From positions 1,833,669-1,897,668 of the forward strand of contig OY821640.1 of assembly GCA_963682125.1 (NCBI GenBank): a DNA stretch of 64,000 nucleotides. The letters are read 5' to 3'. Positions within the stretch are counted from its first letter, which is position 1. Each line of letters begins with the position of its first letter. Shown here piece by piece: positions 1,536 through 52,440 of this stretch. The position numbers were made by a program, and so were the translations under genes. Source of the stretch: Methyloprofundus sp. (GTDB lineage: Bacteria; Pseudomonadota; Gammaproteobacteria; Methylococcales; Methylomonadaceae). The notes beneath the pieces were generated by a model. The model was not told the DNA's origin and ran no database searches. It saw only the letters and a list, made by a program, of their open reading frames with translations.

Positions 1536-2651
1536 TTGATGTTACGCACCCTAATGATATTTCCATTAAAATAGTAGGCTATGAAAACACCTGATATTTT
1601 TGACTTATACACCGATTACCTGATCACTTCATTTAGCTATACAACAGCGACAGGATTGTCAGGCTTAGTTGATAATGCGATCAGTCATGACCCAGTCACT
1701 TGGTTTCTTTCTCAACAAGATTTCACCTCTAAAGAGCTTGGGAAGGTGATCAAAAAAACAGTGAGAGAAATTGAAACGGGTGAGGGTGTTTTAATTTTTG
1801 ATGACACCCTCCAAGAAAAGCCACATAGCAAGGAGAACGACCTCATTTGTTGGCATTATGATCATTGTGTTAATCGTTCAGTGAAAGGCATTAACTTGCT
1901 GAATTGCGTGTATTATTCAAAGGAAACAAGCTTGCCTGTTGCTTTTGAATGAGTCAAAAAGCCCCCCCAATTTTGTGACATAAAAACTCAGCGTGAAAAA
2001 AGAAAAAGTGAGGTAACAAAGAATGAACAATGACGTGATATGTTAAAAGTCTGCTGTCAAAACCAGCTTAAATGGCGTTATGCCTTGGCAGATAGCTGGT
2101 TTTCTTCCTCTGAAAATATGAAATATATCCATGCAACCTTAGAAAAACAATTTATTTTTGCTTTAAAAAGCAACCGTTTGATTGCTTTAAACAAAGAAGA
2201 TAAGGCAAAGGGTCGTTATACACGTATTGATTCTATTCAATGGTCAGAAAATCCTGTGCAAGGCTGGGTTAAAGGGCGGGAGTTTCCGGTCATTTTTCAC
2301 CGTCAAGTCTTTACAAACAAAGATGACAGTACAGGGACTCTTTATCTGATCAGTAATGATTTAAGCGCAACGGCAGCCCCCCTTGAAACAATCTACCAAA
2401 AACGGTGGAAAGTAGAGGTCTTTCATAAAAGCATAAAATCAAATACCAGCATGGCAAAATCACCCGCAAGAACAGTGAGAACACAAAGTAACCCTATCTT
2501 CATGTCGCTTTATGCGACTGCTCGATTAGAGATTCTCAGTGCCCAGCAAGGGCTGAACAAGTTCGCTTTAAAATCGAAACTTTATATTAATGCTATTCGA
2601 CAAGCTTTTGATGAATTGCAACAATTAAAGTCGGCTACTGCTTAACATCAG
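1536..2651 (+). mobile_element. IS701-family (ISAba11-like) insertion sequence, copy 1, transposase interrupted by two in-frame TGA
   Basis: ORFs 1581-1952 and 2040-2645 are in one frame with DDE motifs (IFDDTLQEKP, LADSWF, RWKVEVFHKSIK). Termini (C/T)TGATGTTACGCA...TGC(G/T)TAACATCAG. Near-identical copies at 18678 and 51228. Confidence 0.9.
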
Positions 2652-7441: not shown

Positions 7442-8041
7442 TTAATTAATAATTTTGTTATCTTTTAAATAAATGATGATTTTATCAGCACACTCTTCAA
7501 TACTCAGTTCAGCTGTATTAATGATAAGCTCAGGATTTTTAGGTATTTCGTATTCTGAATCTATCCCGGTAAAATTTTTAATTTGTCCACTGCGTGCTTT
7601 TTTATATAGCCCTTTAGGGTCACGCTGTTCACACACTTCCAATGAAGTATCCATATAGACTTCAACAAACTCATGCTGCTGCACTAAATCTTTTACTAAC
7701 TGACGATCCGCTTTAAAAGGAGAGATAAAAGCTGTCATTACCAACAAACCTGCATCAATCATTAATTTAGATAGCTCTCCAATCCGACGAATATTTTCTA
7801 CTCGATCCTCATTTGAAAAAGCTAAATCTTTATTCAAACCATGGCGTACATTATCACCATCTAATAGATAGGTATGATGTCCTAATTCAAATAACTTTTG
7901 CTCGACAGCGCTAGAAATAGTCGATTTACCTGAACCACTTAAACCTGTAAACCAAAGAATGCAGGGGCGTTGTTTTTTTTGTTTAGAGCGCTCATCTTTT
8001 GTGACATTATGTTGATGCCAGACTATATTTTCATTTGCCAT
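7442..8041 (-). CDS. cysC: Adenylyl-sulfate kinase
   Basis: [46 protein letters not shown]. Confidence 0.95.
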
Positions 8042-8058
8042 AATTATTTTTTAAATAA

Positions 8059-8234
8059 CTGATGTTACGCACCCAATGCCACCGTAGGGCTGCCCCTTGT
8101 GGCTACCCGCATATCACAGCGTTAAAGGGTAGCCGTTGTTGGTGGATGTTGTGTCCATTCTGGGCAACCACAAGGGATTGCCCCTACAATGACAACTCAC
8201 ATCTTAGAATATTGTTACTTATGCGTAACATCAG
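8059..8234 (+). mobile_element. REP-doublet MITE (family A) with IS701-type termini
   Basis: TIR CTGATGTTACGCA / TGCGTAACATCAG; internal inverted GTAGGG..CCCTTGTGG..CCC pair; flanked by direct repeat TTAAATAA. Confidence 0.9.
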
Positions 8235-8343
8235 TTAAATAAGGATTGATAAATTAGAGTATATTTTAGCTTAAGAAACATACACTAGAACTAGTGGCAA
8301 GTATATACTGCTAACTATTAATATAAATAATTCTGAGGCGATT

Positions 8344-8984
8344 ATGGCTTTATTTGATGGCTTACAACGACAATTACGCTCTGTTATTGATAGGCGCGCC
8401 ACCACGTGGCTCGCCTAAAGATTTTGGGACTCCTGTCGCAAAAATCAATTCGCCACGCGGCGAATCAATAATGCCCCGATACGCCCTGCGTTCGGATCAA
8501 CTACGCACAAAAGCTGCTTCGTTAATCCTACCTCAAATGGCTCTACGGCTCTCCGGGATAAAATTTTTACCTCCTGAGCGAACTTACAGTTCACTTCAGA
8601 TTGGTAAATTTCCCTTCGCCTATCGCGGACTAAAAATCACCCCTGATTTTCAGCGGATGAAGATACTCTAAGGCACATTAATCGTATTTCTGATTTAATT
8701 GCCGAGTCTCATGCAGCTAAAGCTGTCGGTTTAGACTATGCAAAAATACAGCAATTGGAAGCCATGCGTGAAGCAGCTAGAAATGAAGGTGGCGGTGCAG
8801 GGCTTGGGTCAATTAATGGCTCAATCAATTAACTCTCCTACGCCGCCCCCAACCACAGCAACTAAACAATCCAGTGATGACTTAATGGCAAAACTTATCC
8901 AGCTAAAAAAAATGTTTGCTGCCGGAGCTGATTACCGAACAAGAGTACGCAGCTAAAAAACAAAGCATTTTGGACAAAATGTAA
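8344..8984 (+). pseudogene. SPFH-domain/SHOCT protein remnant (central part lost, frameshifts)
   Basis: ATG 8344 gives MALFDGLQRQLRSVI, then the repeat 8391-8655, then DEDTLRHINRISDL..QQLEAMREAARNEGGGAG. A frameshifted SHOCT-like end follows: DDLMAKL.QLKKMF..G/LITEQEYAAKKQSILDKM*. Confidence 0.65.
8391..8655 (+). mobile_element. Diverged copy of the 283-bp TIR-less element (family R)
   Basis: Starts TAGGCGCGCC and ends CCCTGATTTTCAGCG like the copies at 20837, 38853 and 50346; shares internal blocks CAACTACGCA, CTGCTTCGTTAA, CTACCTCAAATG, CAGTTCACTTC. Confidence 0.8.
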
Positions 8985-9645: not shown

Positions 9646-9705
9646 AATGACAGTATTACAGTTCCCTTTTAAATGAAGCACTTCCAAGTTACCTAAGTTA
9701 TTTCA

Positions 9706-9887
9706 CTGATGTTACGCATAAGTAACAAGGCATAATTTTCTAAGATGTGAGTTGTCATTGTAGGGGCAATTCCTTGTGGTTTCCCATAATGGACACAATA
9801 TCCAAAAACAACGCACCCCTTTAACGCTGTGATATGCGGGTACCCACAAGGGGCACCCCTACCGTGGCGTTGGGTGCGTAACATCAG
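9706..9887 (-). mobile_element. REP-doublet MITE (family A), reverse orientation
   Basis: Reverse complement of 8059-8234; same 13-bp TIR; flanked by direct repeat TTATTTCA. Confidence 0.9.
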
Positions 9888-9923
9888 TTATTTCATACAT
9901 GTTCCTAAGAAGCGTGCATGAAA

Positions 9924-13582: not shown

Positions 13583-13958
13583 CTGATGTTATGTATCAGT
13601 AACAAGGCATAATTATTCTAAGATGTGAGTTGTCATCGTAGGGGCAATCCCCAATGCCAGTAAGTTAAGCGCAAGTAATTGATATTTAATAACTAAAATA
13701 CTTGTTTTGTCGAAATATAAGAGAAACTTTAGCTTCTAAAGGATTGATGTTATTAGAGTGGTTAAAAAAACCTCGTTTTTATACCAAAAAACTCTATTGG
13801 TATTAATATGTTACGCTTAACTTACTGGCATTGGGGCAATCCCTTGTGGTTGCCCAGAATGGACACAACATCCACAAACAATGGCTACCCTTTAACGCTG
13901 TGATATGCGGGTACCCACAAGGGGCACCCCTACCGTGGCATTGGGTGCGTAACATCAG
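13583..13958 (-). mobile_element. REP-doublet MITE (family A) interrupted by an IS4-derived MITE
   Basis: Family A halves 13583-13651 and 13834-13958 flank the insert. Confidence 0.85.
13652..13833. mobile_element. IS4-family-derived MITE (182 bp)
   Basis: TIR CAATGCCAGTAAGTTAAGCG / CGCTTAACTTACTGGCATTG; perfect 10-bp target duplication GGGCAATCCC (13642-13651, 13834-13843). Confidence 0.85.
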
Positions 13959-18144: not shown

Positions 18145-18677
18145 AGACTGTTACTAACTATGTGTAACTACTTAGCAAATTAAGCATTATTATTTCCAAT
18201 AATTTTAAATGTACTAAGTAAATCACAAAAAAAATTTCCATGCCCCCTAAACTACCAGCATAGTTTTTAACTAACCGAGGGCTCACTCATGAAATTAATA
18301 ATTTTCCCACTAAGCCTATTAGTGACTGATGTTACGCACGCCACGGTAGGGGTGCCCCTTGTGGGTACCCGCATATCACAGCGTTAAAGGGTAGCCGTTG
18401 TTTGTGGATATTGTGTCCATTATGGGCAACCACAAGGGATTGCCCCAATGCCAGTAAGTTAAGGTTAACCCATTGATTATTTTATTATAATTCCTTATAT
18501 TAGCATAAAGCAGTGGAAAATTCAATAAAAAATATTTATGAAGAGTTAAATAACACCCTAAACAGCTTTTATTCGCAATCGTATCCTCAGTTTTCCAACG
18601 TTAATCCTCTATTTACTTAACCTTAGAAAGCACTCAAATCAAACAGAACTAGACCAATTTTTCAAGCTGATTAATAA

Positions 18678-19792
18678 CTGATGTTACGCACCCTAATGAT
18701 ATTGCCATTAAAATAGTAGGCTATGAAAACACCTGATATTTTTGACTTATACACCGATTACCTGATCACTTCATTTAGCTATACAACAGCGACAGGCTTG
18801 TCAGGCTTAGTTGATAATGCGATCAGTCATGACCCAGTCACTCGGTTTCTTTCTCAACAAGATTTCACCTCTAAAGAGCTTGGGAAGGTGATCAAAAAAA
18901 CAGTGAGAGAAATTGAAACGGGTGAGGGTGTTTTAATTTTTGATGACACCCTCCAAGAAAAGCCACATAGCAAGGAGAACGACCTCATTTGTTGGCATTA
19001 TGATCATTGTGTTAATCGTTCAGTGAAAGGCATTAACTTGCTGAATGGCGTGTATTATTCAAAGGAAACAAGCTTGCCTGTTGCCTTTGAATGAGTCAAA
19101 AGCCCCCCCAATTTTGTGACATAAAAACTCAGCGTGAAAAAAGAAAAAGTGAGGTAACAAAGAATGAACAATGACGTGATATGTTAAAAGTCTGCTGTCA
19201 AAACCAGCTTAAATGGCGTTATGCCTTGGCAGATAGCTGGTTTTCTTCCTCTGAAAATATGAAATATATCCATGCAACCTTAGAAAAACAATTTATTTTT
19301 GCTTTAAAAAGCAACCGTTTGATTGCTTTAAACAAAGAAGATAAGGCAAAGGGTCGTTATACACGTATTGATTCTATTCAATGGTCAGAAAATCCTGTGC
19401 AAGGCTGGGTTAAAGGGCGGGAGTTTCCGGTCATTTTTCACCGTCAAGTCTTTACAAACAAAGATGACAGTACAGGGACTCTTTATCGGATCAGTAATGA
19501 TTTAAGCGCAACGGCAGCCCCCCTTGAAACAATCTACCAAAAACGGTGGAAAGTAGAGGTCTTTCATAAAAGCATAAAATCAAATACCAGCATGGCAAAA
19601 TCACCCGCAAGAACAGTGAGAACACAAAGTAACCCTATCTTCATGTCGCTTTATGCGACTGCTCGATTAGAGATTCTCAGTGCCCAGCAAGGGCTGAACA
19701 AGTTCGCTTTAAAATCGAAACTTTATATTAATGCTATTCGACAAGCTTTTGATGAATTGCAACAATTAAAGTCGGCTACTGCGTAACATCAG
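18678..19792 (+). mobile_element. IS701-family IS, copy 2 (inside the IS4 transposase gene)
   Basis: ORFs 18723-19094 and 19181-19786; flanking direct repeat TTAATAA; the IS4 frame ..FKLIN/KEKEASQVVTK rejoins across it; extra 1-bp deletion in an A-run. Confidence 0.9.
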
Positions 19793-20836
19793 TTAATAAA
19801 GAAAAAGAAGCCTCTCAAGTGGTTACAAAATCCGCCTTTTTTCAAGCCAGAAAACAGCTTTCTTACAAAGCGTTTATTGAGCTTAATCGACAAATAATAG
19901 ACACTACTTACAAATCGTATGATCACTTAAAAACATGGCGTGGTTTTCGCCTTTGTGCCGTTGATGGAAGCTCAATTCGCCTCCCAAATACGCCTGACAT
20001 TACGGCACATTTTGGCGTTCACAAAGGGCGTAAAGAGCAAGCTAATTGCACGATGGGAATAGCATCAATTTTTTATGATGTTTTGAATTATTTGGTCATT
20101 GATTCCTGCATTCATCCTAGCGGTTATTCAGAGCGTGCCTGTGCCTCAGAACACGTGCAGCATGCGACTCAAAATGATTTAGTCATTTATGATAGAGGTT
20201 ACCCTGCATTTTGGTTGTATGCATTTCATATTAAACAGAAAAGTTTCTTTTGTATGCGAGAAAAAACAAAGCTTTCATAAAAAGTAATAAAAGAGACGAT
20301 ATTATTGAAATAAAACCTAATAAAAAAGCCATTAAAACATGCCTTGATAGAGGCTTGTCAACAGAGGTTATTAAGCTCAGATGAGTCCGTGTTGACTTGC
20401 CTAATGGGGTGGAAGTTTTAATCACAAATATGATGGATTGCGAAGCCTATGAAGTGGACTTATTTAAGGAGTTATATTATCTTCGCTGGGGCATTGAAGA
20501 AAATTATAAACGCCTAAAACAGTGGGTAGAAATTGAGAACTTTTCAGGCAAATCTGTTTTGTCAATTCAGCAAGATTTTTATGCCAAAATAGTTGCCTCA
20601 AATTTAACCGCTTTGATGGAAATAGCCGCACAAAAAAAAGTGGATAAAAGAACTCATGATTTAGAGTTAAATTACCAAGTAAATTCAGCCCAAGCTTTGT
20701 CAAAAAGGAGGCATCGACTCGTTACTTTTATTCTTGATGCACACAAGGACATTTTGCAAAGAATTGAACAAGTTATTGACTATATTTCTGTCACTATAGA
20801 AGCCCTTAGAGTTGGGCGGTCTGCGCCGAGAGCATT

Positions 20837-21119
20837 TAGGCGCGCCATTCCTACTTCATGAAACATTGGGATGTCCTATCGCTAATCTTCATTCAGCACA
20901 GAGCGATTTATGGGGGCCCCAGTTCGTCCTGCGTCCAACTCAACTACGCAAAAAACACTGCTTCGTTAAGTCTACCTCAAATGACTTGACGGCTGTCGGG
21001 ATAACTACTTGCCTCCCGAGCGAACTGACCAGTTCACTTCGGATTGGCGAATTTCCCTGTCGCCTACTGCTGACTAAAAATCATCACTTCGCTACGCTCC
21101 GTTTCCCTGATTTTCAGCG
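20837..21119 (+). mobile_element. 283-bp TIR-less element (family R)
   Basis: TAGGCGCGCC...CCCTGATTTTCAGCG, near-identical to 38853-39134 and 50346-50628. Confidence 0.9.
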
Positions 21120-21304
21120 ATAGAGCTTTAAGAATGATATTCATTTTTCAGCCTATAAAAGCTCTTTGTAATTAATTAGTTACGCTTAACTTACTGGCAT
21201 TGGGGATTACCCCTACGATGACAACTCACATCTTAGAATAATTAGACCTTATTACTTATGCCTAACATCAGTAATTAACTTAATCAAAAACCCCTCACCT
21301 AAGC

Positions 21305-37135: not shown

Positions 37136-37796
37136 AGGCCTCTTTCAACATCCGCCCATGATTTAATTGCAATACTTTATGTTTTGTCTGTGCAACAATC
37201 CCAGCCTCATGAGTTGCGATCAATATACTCACACCAACCTGTTGAAATTGCTCAAATAAATTCATAATTTCAATGGATAGTTCAGGGGTTAAATTTCCCG
37301 TTGGTTCATCAGCCAAAATTAAAGCTGGTTTATTAACAACGGCTCTGGCGATTCCAACTCGTTGCTGCTCTCCACCTGATAAGGCTAATGGATATTTTTT
37401 TTCCTTTCCTAACAAGCCTACTTTATCAAGTGCCGCACGCACGAGCCTTGCAAGATCATAATGCCCAACCCCAGAAACCAATAAAGGCAAAGCAACATTG
37501 TCAAACACTGTTCGGTCAGCCAACAACTTATAATCTTGAAATATTAAACCCATTTTTCTACGCAAAGCAGGAATATCTCCTTCTCGTAAACGACATAAGT
37601 TCTGTCCATCAAAGAGCATCTGACCTCTTGAACAGCGCTCCATAAGAGCAACCAACCTTAATACTGTACTTTTTCCTGCACCTGAATGCCCTGTTAAAAA
37701 GGCAATTTCACATTTATTTAAATGAAAACTCACATCAATCAACGCATTATTCGCTGTATAACGTTTGAAGACATGATTATACCCAAACGAAATCAA
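37122..37796 (-). CDS. ftsE: Cell division ATP-binding protein FtsE (5' end supplied by IS630 terminus)
   Basis: GHSGAGKST, LSGGEQQRVGIARA, LADEPTGNL; TTG start at 37796 lies in the IS630 TIR; native ATG is stranded at 39141. Confidence 0.85.
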   Translation of the reverse strand: MISFGYNHVFKRYTANNALIDVSFHLNKCEIAFLTGHSGAGKSTVLRLVALMERCSRGQMLFDGQNLCRLREGDIPALRRKMGLIFQDYKLLADRTVFDNVALPLLVSGVGHYDLARLVRAALDKVGLLGKEKKYPLALSGGEQQRVGIARAVVNKPALILADEPTGNLTPELSIEIMNLFEQFQQVGVSILIATHEAGIVAQTKHKVLQLNHGRMLKEAYETL

Positions 37797-38846
37797 GATG
37801 CAGAGCTTAACACCTGAAAATTATCGTTAATTCTTTCGTTTAAAGAGTCGGCAATACTAGGTAATGTCCGATCAAAAAAATGATTTATTTGATGTCGAAA
37901 TTCCTTAGCCGTTGCAAAATATTTATTATTCCGTGCGTGTTCATTCATGACCTTCCAGAGTCGTTCTATCGGATTTAAATTAGGACTGTAAGGTGGTAAA
38001 TAATGGAGTTTAATATTTAATTCTTTTGCTTTTTCAACCACAACGCTCCATCGAGCACAATATTTATGCAGTGACTTGATGCGTATTGAGCCTTTATTTT
38101 TTCAAAAAAATCAATAATAGACTCACCATTGACGGTTTTATATTGATGGGGGACCGCTTCAGATAAAAAGCCCAATCGAATGGCTCCGATGATATTTAAT
38201 CGAGTTCGACTGCCTGTTGTTTCAATGACTTTATCAACGCCTGTTTTAATCCAGCCAGAGGTGACTTTTGTGGCTTGTGTTGGAGGGACTGCATCAATGA
38301 ACAAGAGTGGTTCATCACACGCCAGAGAAGCCTTTAGCGCTTCGTATTCACGTATAAATTCAGCTTGCTTCTCAGCGTTAAACTTATGAGGTACACCTTT
38401 AGGTTGCTTATAGCTAAACCCCTGTTGGTGAAGCCATTTATTCATCCCTGAAAGACTATATTGAATAGCATAGACGGACAGAACATAAGCAACAATTTGA
38501 TGGGTATGAACGTCAGTAATTTCAGATAAATGTTGAATCAATTTTTCTGTCTGGTCAGCCTTTAAAAGGCTTTGTGAGCCCCCATTTTCAGGGGCTAACT
38601 AAAGTCCATCAGATGACGCGAAATGGTAGAGTCATGTTTTCTTAAAGCTTGGGCAATTTGTGTGATTGACCAGCCTTCTGAGCTGAGTAATATGGCTTTA
38701 ATTCGATCGCACTCATGTACATCACGGACTTTATTATGCCGCAATTCTAATGCCTTTTTTTGTTCGGAGGTGAGTGTGATTTTCATATTTTGTATAGCTT
38801 GACTTGATTTTTCTCATTTATCAAGCATCTTCAATGATTTTGGGTA
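37780..38846 (-). mobile_element. IS630-family insertion sequence (frameshifted transposase)
   Basis: Fragments 38595-38786 (HTH), 38017-38541 (FIDAV, SRTRLNIIGA) and 37793-38041 (LPPYSPNLNPIERLW); TA duplicated at both ends; termini TATACCCAA..AAGATGC. Confidence 0.9.
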
Positions 38847-38852
38847 TAAAAC

Positions 38853-51047: not shown

Positions 51048-52440
51048 TTAGTCTTTAAAATAAAACTTTGTATATTTTTTGCTTGGGCAAATGGTTTTTA
51101 AAAAATAGCGTTCTTTTTCTTCTACAAATGGCACTATATAAGCATATTCATTAACATTCACCACAAAACACCTTTGCTTTTCATGCGTAGGACTGGAAAT
51201 AATATCGAGTAATTTTTCATTTTTTAACTGATGTTACGCACCCTAATGATATTTCCATTAAAATAGTAGGCTATGAAAACACCTGATATTTTTGACTTAT
51301 ACACCGATTACCTGATCACTTCATTTAGCTATACAACAGCGGCAGGCTTGTCAGGCTTAGTTGATAATGCGATCAGTCATGACCCAGTCACTCGGTTTCT
51401 TTCTCAACAAGATTTCACCTCTAAAGAGCTTGGGAAGGTGATCAAAAAAACAGTGAGAGAAATTGAAACGGGTGAGGGTGTTTTAATTTTTGATGACACC
51501 CTCCAAGAAAAGCCACATAGCAAGGAGAACGACCTCATTTGTTGGCATTATGATCATTGTGTTAATCGTTCAGTGAAAGGCATTAACTTGCTGAATGGCG
51601 TGTATTATTCAAAGGAAACAAGCTTGCCTGTTGCCTTTGAATGAGTCAAAAAGCCCACCCAATTTTGTGACATAAAAACTCAGCGTGAAAAAAGAAAAAG
51701 TGAGGTAACAAAGAATGAACAATGACGTGATATGTTAAAAGTCTGCTGTCAAAACCAGCTTAAATGGCGTTATGCCTTGGCAGATAGCTGGTTTTCTTCC
51801 TCTGAAAATATGAAATATATCCATGCAACCTTAGAAAAACAATTTATTTTTGCTTTAAAAAGCAACCGTTTGATTGCTTTAAACAAAGAAGATAAGGCAA
51901 AGGGTCGTTATACACGTATTGATTCTATTCAATGGTCAGAAAATCCTGTGCAAGGCTGGGTTAAAGGGCGGGAGTTTCCGGTCATTTTTCACCGTCAAGT
52001 CTTTACAAACAAAGATGACAGTACAGGGACTCTTTATCGGATCAGTAATGATTTAAGCGCAACGGTAGCCCCCCTTGAAACAATTTACCAAAAACGGTGG
52101 AAAGTAGAGGTCTTTCATAAAAGCATAAAATCAAATACCAGCATGGCAAAATCACCCGCAAGAACAGTGAGAACACAAAGTAACCCTATCTTCATGTCGC
52201 TTTATGCGACTGCTCGATTAGAGATTCTCAGTGCCCAGCAAGGGCTGAACAAGTTCGCTTTAAAATCGAAACTTTATATTAATGCTATTCGACAAGCTTT
52301 TGATGAATTGCAACAATTAAAGTCGGCTACTGCGTAACATCAGTTTTTAATGCAAATACGACATCTTCAAATGAAATATTCCTGCCCTCCCTTAATAGGT
52401 TATTTTTATCTTCATCCCACTGAAAAATTTTTGCTAACAT
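51048..52440 (-). pseudogene. BrnT-like toxin disrupted by IS701 copy 3
   Basis: Rejoined frame MLAKIFQWDEDKNNLLREGRNISFEDVVFALK-NEKLLDII..QRCFVVNVNEYAYIVPFVEEKERYFLKTICPSKKYTK (89 aa); not in the ORF track. Confidence 0.8.
51228..52343 (+). mobile_element. IS701-family IS, copy 3
   Basis: ORFs 51273-51644 and 51732-52337; flanking direct repeat TTTTTAA. Confidence 0.9.

Follow-up and report, generated by a model that had tools for sequence, protein, structure and literature searches.

How does a pair of REP hairpins come to lie between the ends of an IS701-type transposon, and what has moved such an element? GTAG-type REP doublets are normally linked to HUH RAYTs and lack target duplications. 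The window analyzed here, a stretch of 64,000 nucleotides (C1:1833669-1897668) from the closed 2.68-Mb genome of Methyloprofundus sp. (G000; 38% G+C), which is crowded with mobile DNA, contains four short elements in which such hairpins and IS701-type ends are combined. The original prediction was that a REPIN had been captured by a DDE transposon and now spreads independently of RAYT. The observation on which it was based is confirmed, and the capture reading is supported, each inferred part having passed an independent test. Judging from sequence comparison, a REPIN-like doublet has probably become the core of a DDE-mobilized type-II MITE, named MITE-A in the following.

The four copies, starting at 8059, 9706, 13583 and 18326, are real and measure 176-184 bp after removal of inserts. 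The terminal sequence CTGATGTTACGCA was found with up to two mismatches at 15 sites in the window (1.33 expected; 0 of 100 shuffles reach 15), six of which bound three IS copies of 1115-1116 bp, while the rest bound the four small elements. The features are as follows:

8059..8234, + strand: MITE-A copy 1, 176 bp, intact, both TIRs exact
8059..8079, + strand: L-end terminus of copy 1; its first 13 nt, CTGATGTTACGCA, are identical to either end of IS-A
8084..8108, + strand: REP unit L of copy 1, GTAGGGCTGCCCCTTGTGGCTACCC (family consensus GTAGGGGTGCCCCTTGTGGGTACCC), a GTAG-tagged hairpin
8162..8187, − strand: REP unit R of copy 1, the 26-mer GTAGGGGCAATCCCTTGTGGTTGCCC, containing the preferred 10-bp target of element B, GGGCAATCCC
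8222..8234, − strand: R-end terminus of copy 1, CTGATGTTACGCA
9706..9887, − strand: MITE-A copy 2, 182 bp, intact, inverted, both TIRs exact
13583..13958, − strand: MITE-A copy 3, 376 bp (184 bp without insert), left TIR with two mismatches
18326..18445, + strand: L part of MITE-A copy 4, interrupted within REP unit R by IS-B (18446-21202)
21203..21271, + strand: R part of MITE-A copy 4, with CTGATGTTAGGCA (reverse strand) at its end, right TIR with one mismatch
1536..2651, + strand: IS-A copy, 1116 bp, without duplication, TGA at codons 124 and 151
18678..19792, + strand: IS-A copy nested in IS-B, 7-bp duplication TTAATAA
51228..52343, + strand: IS-A copy, 7-bp duplication TTTTTAA, used as reference for family searches

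Copy 1 is located between the ORFs 7442-8041 (−) and 8354-8671 (+) and copy 2 between convergent ORFs; the three window copies examined in this respect are all intergenic. The perfect 8-bp duplications proposed for two copies proved exact, with TTAAATAA at 8051-8058 and 8235-8242 for copy 1 and TTATTTCA at 9698-9705 and 9888-9895 for copy 2. Copies 3 and 4 have no flanking duplications of their own, and copy 3 holds a nested 182-bp MITE-B (13652-13833) with the 10-bp duplication GGGCAATCCC/GGGATTGCCC. After removal of the inserts, every copy can be aligned to a consensus of 184 bp, in which no ORF of at least 50 aa was found. The inverted pair of GTAGGG(G)..CCCTTGTGG..CCC hairpins is present at 8084-8108 and 8162-8187. 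Each unit folds as GTAG followed by an 8-bp stem with a CTTGT loop, and in the centroid fold of the whole element terminus pairs with terminus and unit L with unit R. Between subtypes the REP stems covary (GGGCAA../..TTGCCC, GGGTGCCC/GGGTACCC and GGGCGGGT/ACCCGCCC).

The termini are those of the IS701 elements, as had been claimed, with 13 of 13 nt matching both ends of IS-A. At the L end the likeness is longer, since the first 16 nt and a following AATG match the left end of IS-A save one missing T (20/21 nt against the local IS-A left end). No similarity to IS-A was detected in the interior of MITE-A, and the shared sequence is limited to the termini. IS-A itself is assigned by its 354-codon frame to the NCBIfam model NF049921 (transpos_IS701_2; 327 bits, cut-off 250) and scores 46.7 bits against Pfam DDE_5 (cut-off 27). 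In G000, 86-88 full copies of 96.5-100% identity are present. Duplications of 7 bp flank 15 of them and duplications of 8 bp another 12-13; 47 copies have none, yet their flanks still fit TTA-N(1-2)-TAA, which points to recombination between copies. Relatives with the same terminus and 7/8-bp duplications occur in Leucothrix (80% aa identity), a Campylobacterales MAG, Ghiorsea, Psychromonas, cyanobacteria, Methylobacter and Polaromonas. The 7-bp duplications read for IS copies of the window are borne out for 18678-19792 and 51228-52343; the copy 1536-2651 has none. The contrast drawn between an 8-bp duplication of the MITE and a 7-bp one of the IS reflects the small sample, as both elements give 7 or 8 bp genome-wide.

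The extent of terminal similarity bears on how the doublet came to be enclosed. It is possible, though rather less than probable, that a REPIN inserted into a full IS-A whose transposase gene was later deleted, or that IS-like ends were recruited around a resident doublet. Both ends of MITE-A exceed the 13-bp core of IS-A, the L end by the near-complete match given above, and at the R end the sequence CTGATGTTACGCATAAGT is similar to the left ends of the Leucothrix and Campylobacterales relatives (CTGATGTTACGCAGTAAGT). Further, degeneration of an IS is the usual explanation for type-II MITEs (PMC10969869). However, the REP unit and the R terminus are separated by 42 nt without any match to IS-A, and no intermediate, i.e., an IS-A copy with a doublet, is found among 86 copies. 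Each of these routes would lead to the same final element.

BLAST searches in G000 returned L parts and R parts of MITE-A, about 17 of each, corresponding to about 17 copies. Both ends are kept at ten loci, and six of these complete copies have perfect duplications (8, 7, 7, 8, 8 and 7 bp), so that most do not lack them; four of the ten are without. Unrelated IS-A flanks match over at least 7 bp by chance in 2.2% of 7140 pairs. MITE-A and IS-A have the target consensus TTA-N(1-2)-TAA in common, and orphan MITE-A ends likewise adjoin ...TAA; such orphaned halves presumably arose by recombination between copies of element B. One further copy (C1:2650567-2650749) had both termini replaced, its left side abutting the end of another IS4-like element (CTTAACTTAATGGCAGTGA).

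The locus of copy 1 has orthologs in three genomes of the same genus (about 85% identity). For this one locus an exact empty site was detected in the sister species G208 (contig C28), which has a single TTAAATTAA and no MITE: it reads ...TTTTAAATTAAGG... / ...tcatagtttTTTTAAATTAAggttaaa... where G000 has TTAAATAA, the MITE and again TTAAATAA. The orthologous intergenic region of copy 2 is likewise without MITE-A. A repeat of about 270 bp at 8389-8655, 150 bp from copy 1, is also absent from the orthologous G208 locus; it is abundant in G000 and across the genus, and we take it to be the 283-bp element at 20837-21119.

Copy 1 and the copy at C1:2549076 share a derived 8-bp deletion and 96.6% identity and differ in their duplications, which indicates that transposition of MITE-A continued after the deletion arose. 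Identity among copies is 81-97% (mean 92%); they therefore predate the present burst of IS-A, and the nesting order in the window (MITE-A, then element B, then IS-A) agrees with this. Duplication length and target matching IS-A, the empty site and the deletion-sharing copies support the view that MITE-A would have spread by a DDE route.

Whether it spreads at present is another matter. In every full IS-A copy the transposase frame is interrupted by TGA at two codons, 124 and 151, where relatives, including one of the same genus (G055), encode Leu (VAFELVKKP and KNEQLRDML). Recoding of TGA to Trp (code 4) opens the frame and was considered, but was rejected since the relatives have Leu and no tRNA with a UCA anticodon, nor a suppressor tRNA, was found in G000. 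The TGA codons are nonsense mutations, not recoding. As all of about 88 copies share both, the two nonsense changes preceded the copy burst; a burst despite them might be due to read-through, to a helper copy since lost or to a split enzyme. Present-day activity of IS-A and MITE-A is doubtful given two TGA codons in every full IS-A copy. Of the claim that the element “now spreads”, past spread is thus borne out by duplications and the empty site and present spread is not.

In terms of class, MITE-A agrees with type-II MITEs (definition in PMC10969869 and PMC3184786) in being non-coding and below 500 bp, in TIRs shared with an IS, in the duplications and target of its partner and in the empty site; a functional transposase in trans is missing in G000, which bears on present activity and not on classification. 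The structure of its core is that of a REPIN (PMC3116915; for GTAG REPs, PMC3733652), namely GTAG-tagged imperfect palindromes of 20-40 nt, inverted and with a short spacer; in the context of G000 there is no cognate RAYT flanked by the same REP, and neither high copy number nor dispersal without termini and duplications.

The origin of the core can be traced beyond this genome. The 26-mer GTAGGGGCAATCCCTTGTGGTTGCCC was detected with up to three mismatches in 31 of 121 family genomes, representing 15 of 36 genera, often with no mismatch at all, and its reversed control gave zero matches in the same search. Exact conservation of a 26-nt unit across many genera is unusually wide for a REP sequence and implies strong constraint or horizontal spread. 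In other genomes the unit usually belongs to an inverted doublet, its partner being either an identical hairpin or a different one of the GTAGGGGC type with a covarying stem. Among 201 family genomes, the full MITE-A was found in G000 only, and two metagenome scans for its junctions (TIR + REP; REP + R arm) gave no matches. In the sister species G208 and G078, the similarity is confined to MITE positions 26-132 and in no case includes the terminal parts. With the spacer and both unit subtypes included, the doublets of G208 show an 80% match over 104 nt and are by sequence the convincing homolog of the MITE-A interior, the spacer of family C described below being a weak one. Naked doublets in sister species and a wrapped form in G000 alone of the 201 family genomes are what capture of a REPIN by a DDE transposon predicts.

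One G208 doublet has a compensatory pair, CCCTCGTGG/CCACGAGGG, in its two arms. It is located 40 nt downstream of the stop codon of a RAYT-like Y1 gene fragment (...MPNHFHGIIELNSGDKQLGDIVGAFKS...WHRNYFEHVIRDE...). GYDYSQ-type Y1 homologs flanked by the REP class of the MITE were also found in G176 and G037, and in G111 a gene of this type contains a doublet in frame and has a further one upstream of it. Against the RAYT model NF047646, the protein of G111 reaches 64 bits and so falls short of the cut-off (80). The association of GYDYSQ-type Y1 genes with this REP class draws on four genomes (G208, G176, G111 and G037). As a separate observation, a GTAG-tagged palindrome or doublet is contained in frame, in the loop after the HUH motif, in the GYDYSQ-type Y1/RAYT-like genes at L160 63-716 (G111), L164 (G027), L165 (G037) and L162 (G149). 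The flanks of these genes carry the same palindrome as the gene, and it differs between genomes (GTAGAGACGCGAT..., GTAGAGACAAGGCATGCC..., GTAGAGGCTCCCCTTGTGG...).

A tblastn search for an ortholog of the G208 Y1 gene in G000 found none, the best match being a classic RAYT with 24-27% identity. This gene (C1:2450225-2450650; NF047646, 185 bits, cut-off 80) is flanked by GTAGGGTGCGTTTTACGCACC units (GTAGGGTGCG...), and these four are the only copies in G000. With one REPIN of GTAGGGTGCGTTTTACGCACC on each side, the region C1:2450044-2450735 is a REPIN-RAYT system without a dispersed population; GGGTGCGTAA also forms the inner portion of the IS-A/MITE-A terminus, which may be a coincidence. About 28 IS200-type Y1 copies are present in G000. 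Two Y1 genes are flanked by AATAGCTTTAGCTATT palindromes and two others by GGTGTCAGGTCTTGCC repeats; none in G000 is flanked by the REP of the MITE. The RAYT-like gene at C1:2504238, the sole Y1 gene of G000 with a unit nearby, was rejected as a cognate, because the unit just upstream comes from a truncated copy of family C and different inverted repeats belong to the gene itself. Independence from RAYT therefore stands as far as the cognate Y1 gene is concerned, which is absent, and needs the reservation that a classic RAYT with a different REP is present.

The census of REP units with and without the TIR wrapper showed that nearly all units in G000 are wrapped. The core CCCTTGTGG occurs at 47 sites (about 7.5 expected), of which about 25 are in MITE-A, about 12 in family C, 2-3 elsewhere and about 7 are unrelated chance matches; REP units number about 40. 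These results make it very improbable that the doublet is still moved by the classic RAYT with the IS-type termini and duplications being incidental. That RAYT is bona fide and its own REPs also begin with GTAGGG. Nevertheless, they are confined to the four units beside the gene, no naked copies of the doublet subtype were found at new loci in G000, and homology among MITE-A copies extends to the IS-type termini every time. Moreover, HUH/Y1 transposition gives no target duplication, in contrast to the 7-8 bp at the IS-A target in six of ten MITE-A copies.

Equally far-fetched appears the reverse direction, in which REP-like doublets elsewhere would have arisen by decay of an original MITE. In Coxiella, truncated copies of QMITE2 have been noted as such remnants (PMC10969869), and truncated MITE-A parts do exist in G000. 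Against such a history, the REP unit is exact in 15 genera and accompanied by the termini only in G000, and in other genera the doublets flank Y1 genes and combine the unit with different GTAGGGGC hairpins. That the hairpins simply belong to the subterminal sequence of an autonomous IS, many of which do have subterminal repeats at their ends, can practically be dismissed, as they are absent from the ends of IS-A and of 17 relatives examined, no coding element bounded by MITE-A termini contains them, and the doublets occur naked in sister species.

Capture by IS-A ends is not the only association of this REP class with transposon termini; three independent wrappers were found around it: the IS701-type one of MITE-A, ends of about 26 bp with TA flanks (family C), and IS4-type termini CACTGCCATTAAGTTAAG in G027. 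Family C is an element of about 330 bp in G000 with imperfect 26-bp termini (AGTAGTCCCGAATATTTAATTTAAC/AGTACTCACGCAAAATTAATTTAAC). The same REP doublet is located close to one of its ends, and it is represented by about four full and about ten partial copies, almost all hit by element B (outside the window: C1:2113834-2114444, 283265-283750, 2601468-2601760 and 1438306 onwards). Its termini and TA flanks have the signature of IS630/Tc1-like elements; an autonomous partner was not found. The copies had been considered naked REPINs, which was rejected when an extended alignment showed the 26-bp termini and TA flanks, and a kinship with the 283-bp element (20837-21119) or with the IS630 at 37778-38848 was discarded as these are unrelated. 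Between the spacers of MITE-A and family C the homology is weak, 9 of 500 shuffles reaching the score.

In G027, which belongs to another genus, REP doublets (GTAGGGGCGGGTCTTGTACCCGCCC and the 26-mer unit) are located between the IS4-type termini (L020, L022, L024, L026 and L181-L185), often in the loop of another palindrome (TCGTTCCCACGCG...). One of four wrapped doublets checked has a clear duplication, and mobility is not claimed for them.

Element B is an IS231-like element of the IS4 type with the terminus CAATGCCAGTAAGTTAAG, 10-bp duplications and GGG-N4-CCC targets. Its inserts in the window are the 182-bp MITE at 13652-13833 and the 2.76-kb IS at 18446-21202, which itself holds an IS-A copy. 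In at least ten MITE-A copies it is inserted at GGGCAATCCC of REP unit R, in both orientations. Including 13642-13843 and 18436-21212 of the window and at least ten further loci in G000, most copies of MITE-A and family C have element B at GGGCAATCCC.

REPINs are regarded as RAYT-dependent, vertically inherited and doomed after loss of the RAYT, and MITEs as degenerate IS copies. The papers searched gave no account of a REP doublet as the core of a DDE-type MITE. MITE-A is like the known type-II MITEs (Nezha, Chunjie, Correia/NEMIS and MITEAba12; PMC10969869, PMC3184786) in size below 500 bp, lack of coding sequence, TIRs shared with an IS, duplications, AT-rich intergenic sites, multiple copies and hairpin folding. 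It differs from them in its core, a recognizable REP doublet which occurs naked beside a RAYT-like gene in a sister species, and in its partner, an IS701-family element with variable 7/8-bp duplications. Chunjie has reportedly been described with both MITE and REP features. With REPINs (PMC3116915, PMC3733652) the interior shares two inverted GTAG-tagged hairpins, a spacer of about 50 nt and the long hairpin, and the sister-species copies of the doublet likewise flank a Y1 gene. Unlike REPINs, MITE-A has DDE-type termini and duplications, its copies number tens rather than hundreds, and the associated Y1 gene is missing in G000. IS ends around foreign cargo, moved in trans by the transposase of the IS, are also found in the IS231-derived MIC231 cassettes of Bacillus cereus. 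MICs carry genes and use IS4-family ends, whereas the cargo of MITE-A is a 105-bp REP doublet and its ends are of the IS701 type. Element B, landing in GGGCAATCCC of unit R, resembles the REP-targeting IS (IS1397, IS621 and ISPpu9/10; PMC3184786, PMC12288879); MITE-A is the converse, a REP pair carried between IS ends.

In the mechanism we propose, a naked REPIN-like doublet (MITE positions 26-130) would have pre-existed in the lineage beside a RAYT-like tyrosine-transposase gene and would have been enclosed between two IS-A ends in G000. The DDE transposase of IS-A would bind the 13-bp termini in trans, cut or copy the element and insert it at TTA-N(1-2)-TAA with a 7- or 8-bp duplication, leading to about 17 copies. 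The doublet would be passive cargo, providing a long hairpin and a favored landing site for element B. We infer IS-A transposase as the mover, the route of enclosure, and that the spread is over or rare today. Counted against this reading are the lack of an intact IS-A frame among about 80 full copies, the complete copies without duplications, the modest copy number, the divergence among copies and the disruption of at least ten of them by element B.

G000 holds more doublet copies than the sister species with the Y1 gene, and they are nearly all wrapped. Tentatively, we consider it not far short of probable that REP doublets in this family repeatedly become cores of DDE-type MITEs, so that a REPIN lineage would survive the loss of its own tyrosine transposase. 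MITE-A joins the REPIN and MITE classes and would show concretely where the “foreign” core of a type-II MITE can come from, as well as offer an example of a non-autonomous element switching its transposase class. With 184 bp and 13-bp termini, it would also be a small, defined substrate for tests of IS701-family transposases. For the genome that carries it, the hairpin cargo would turn the MITE into a magnet for a REP-targeting IS and thereby add to nested insertions and rearrangements.
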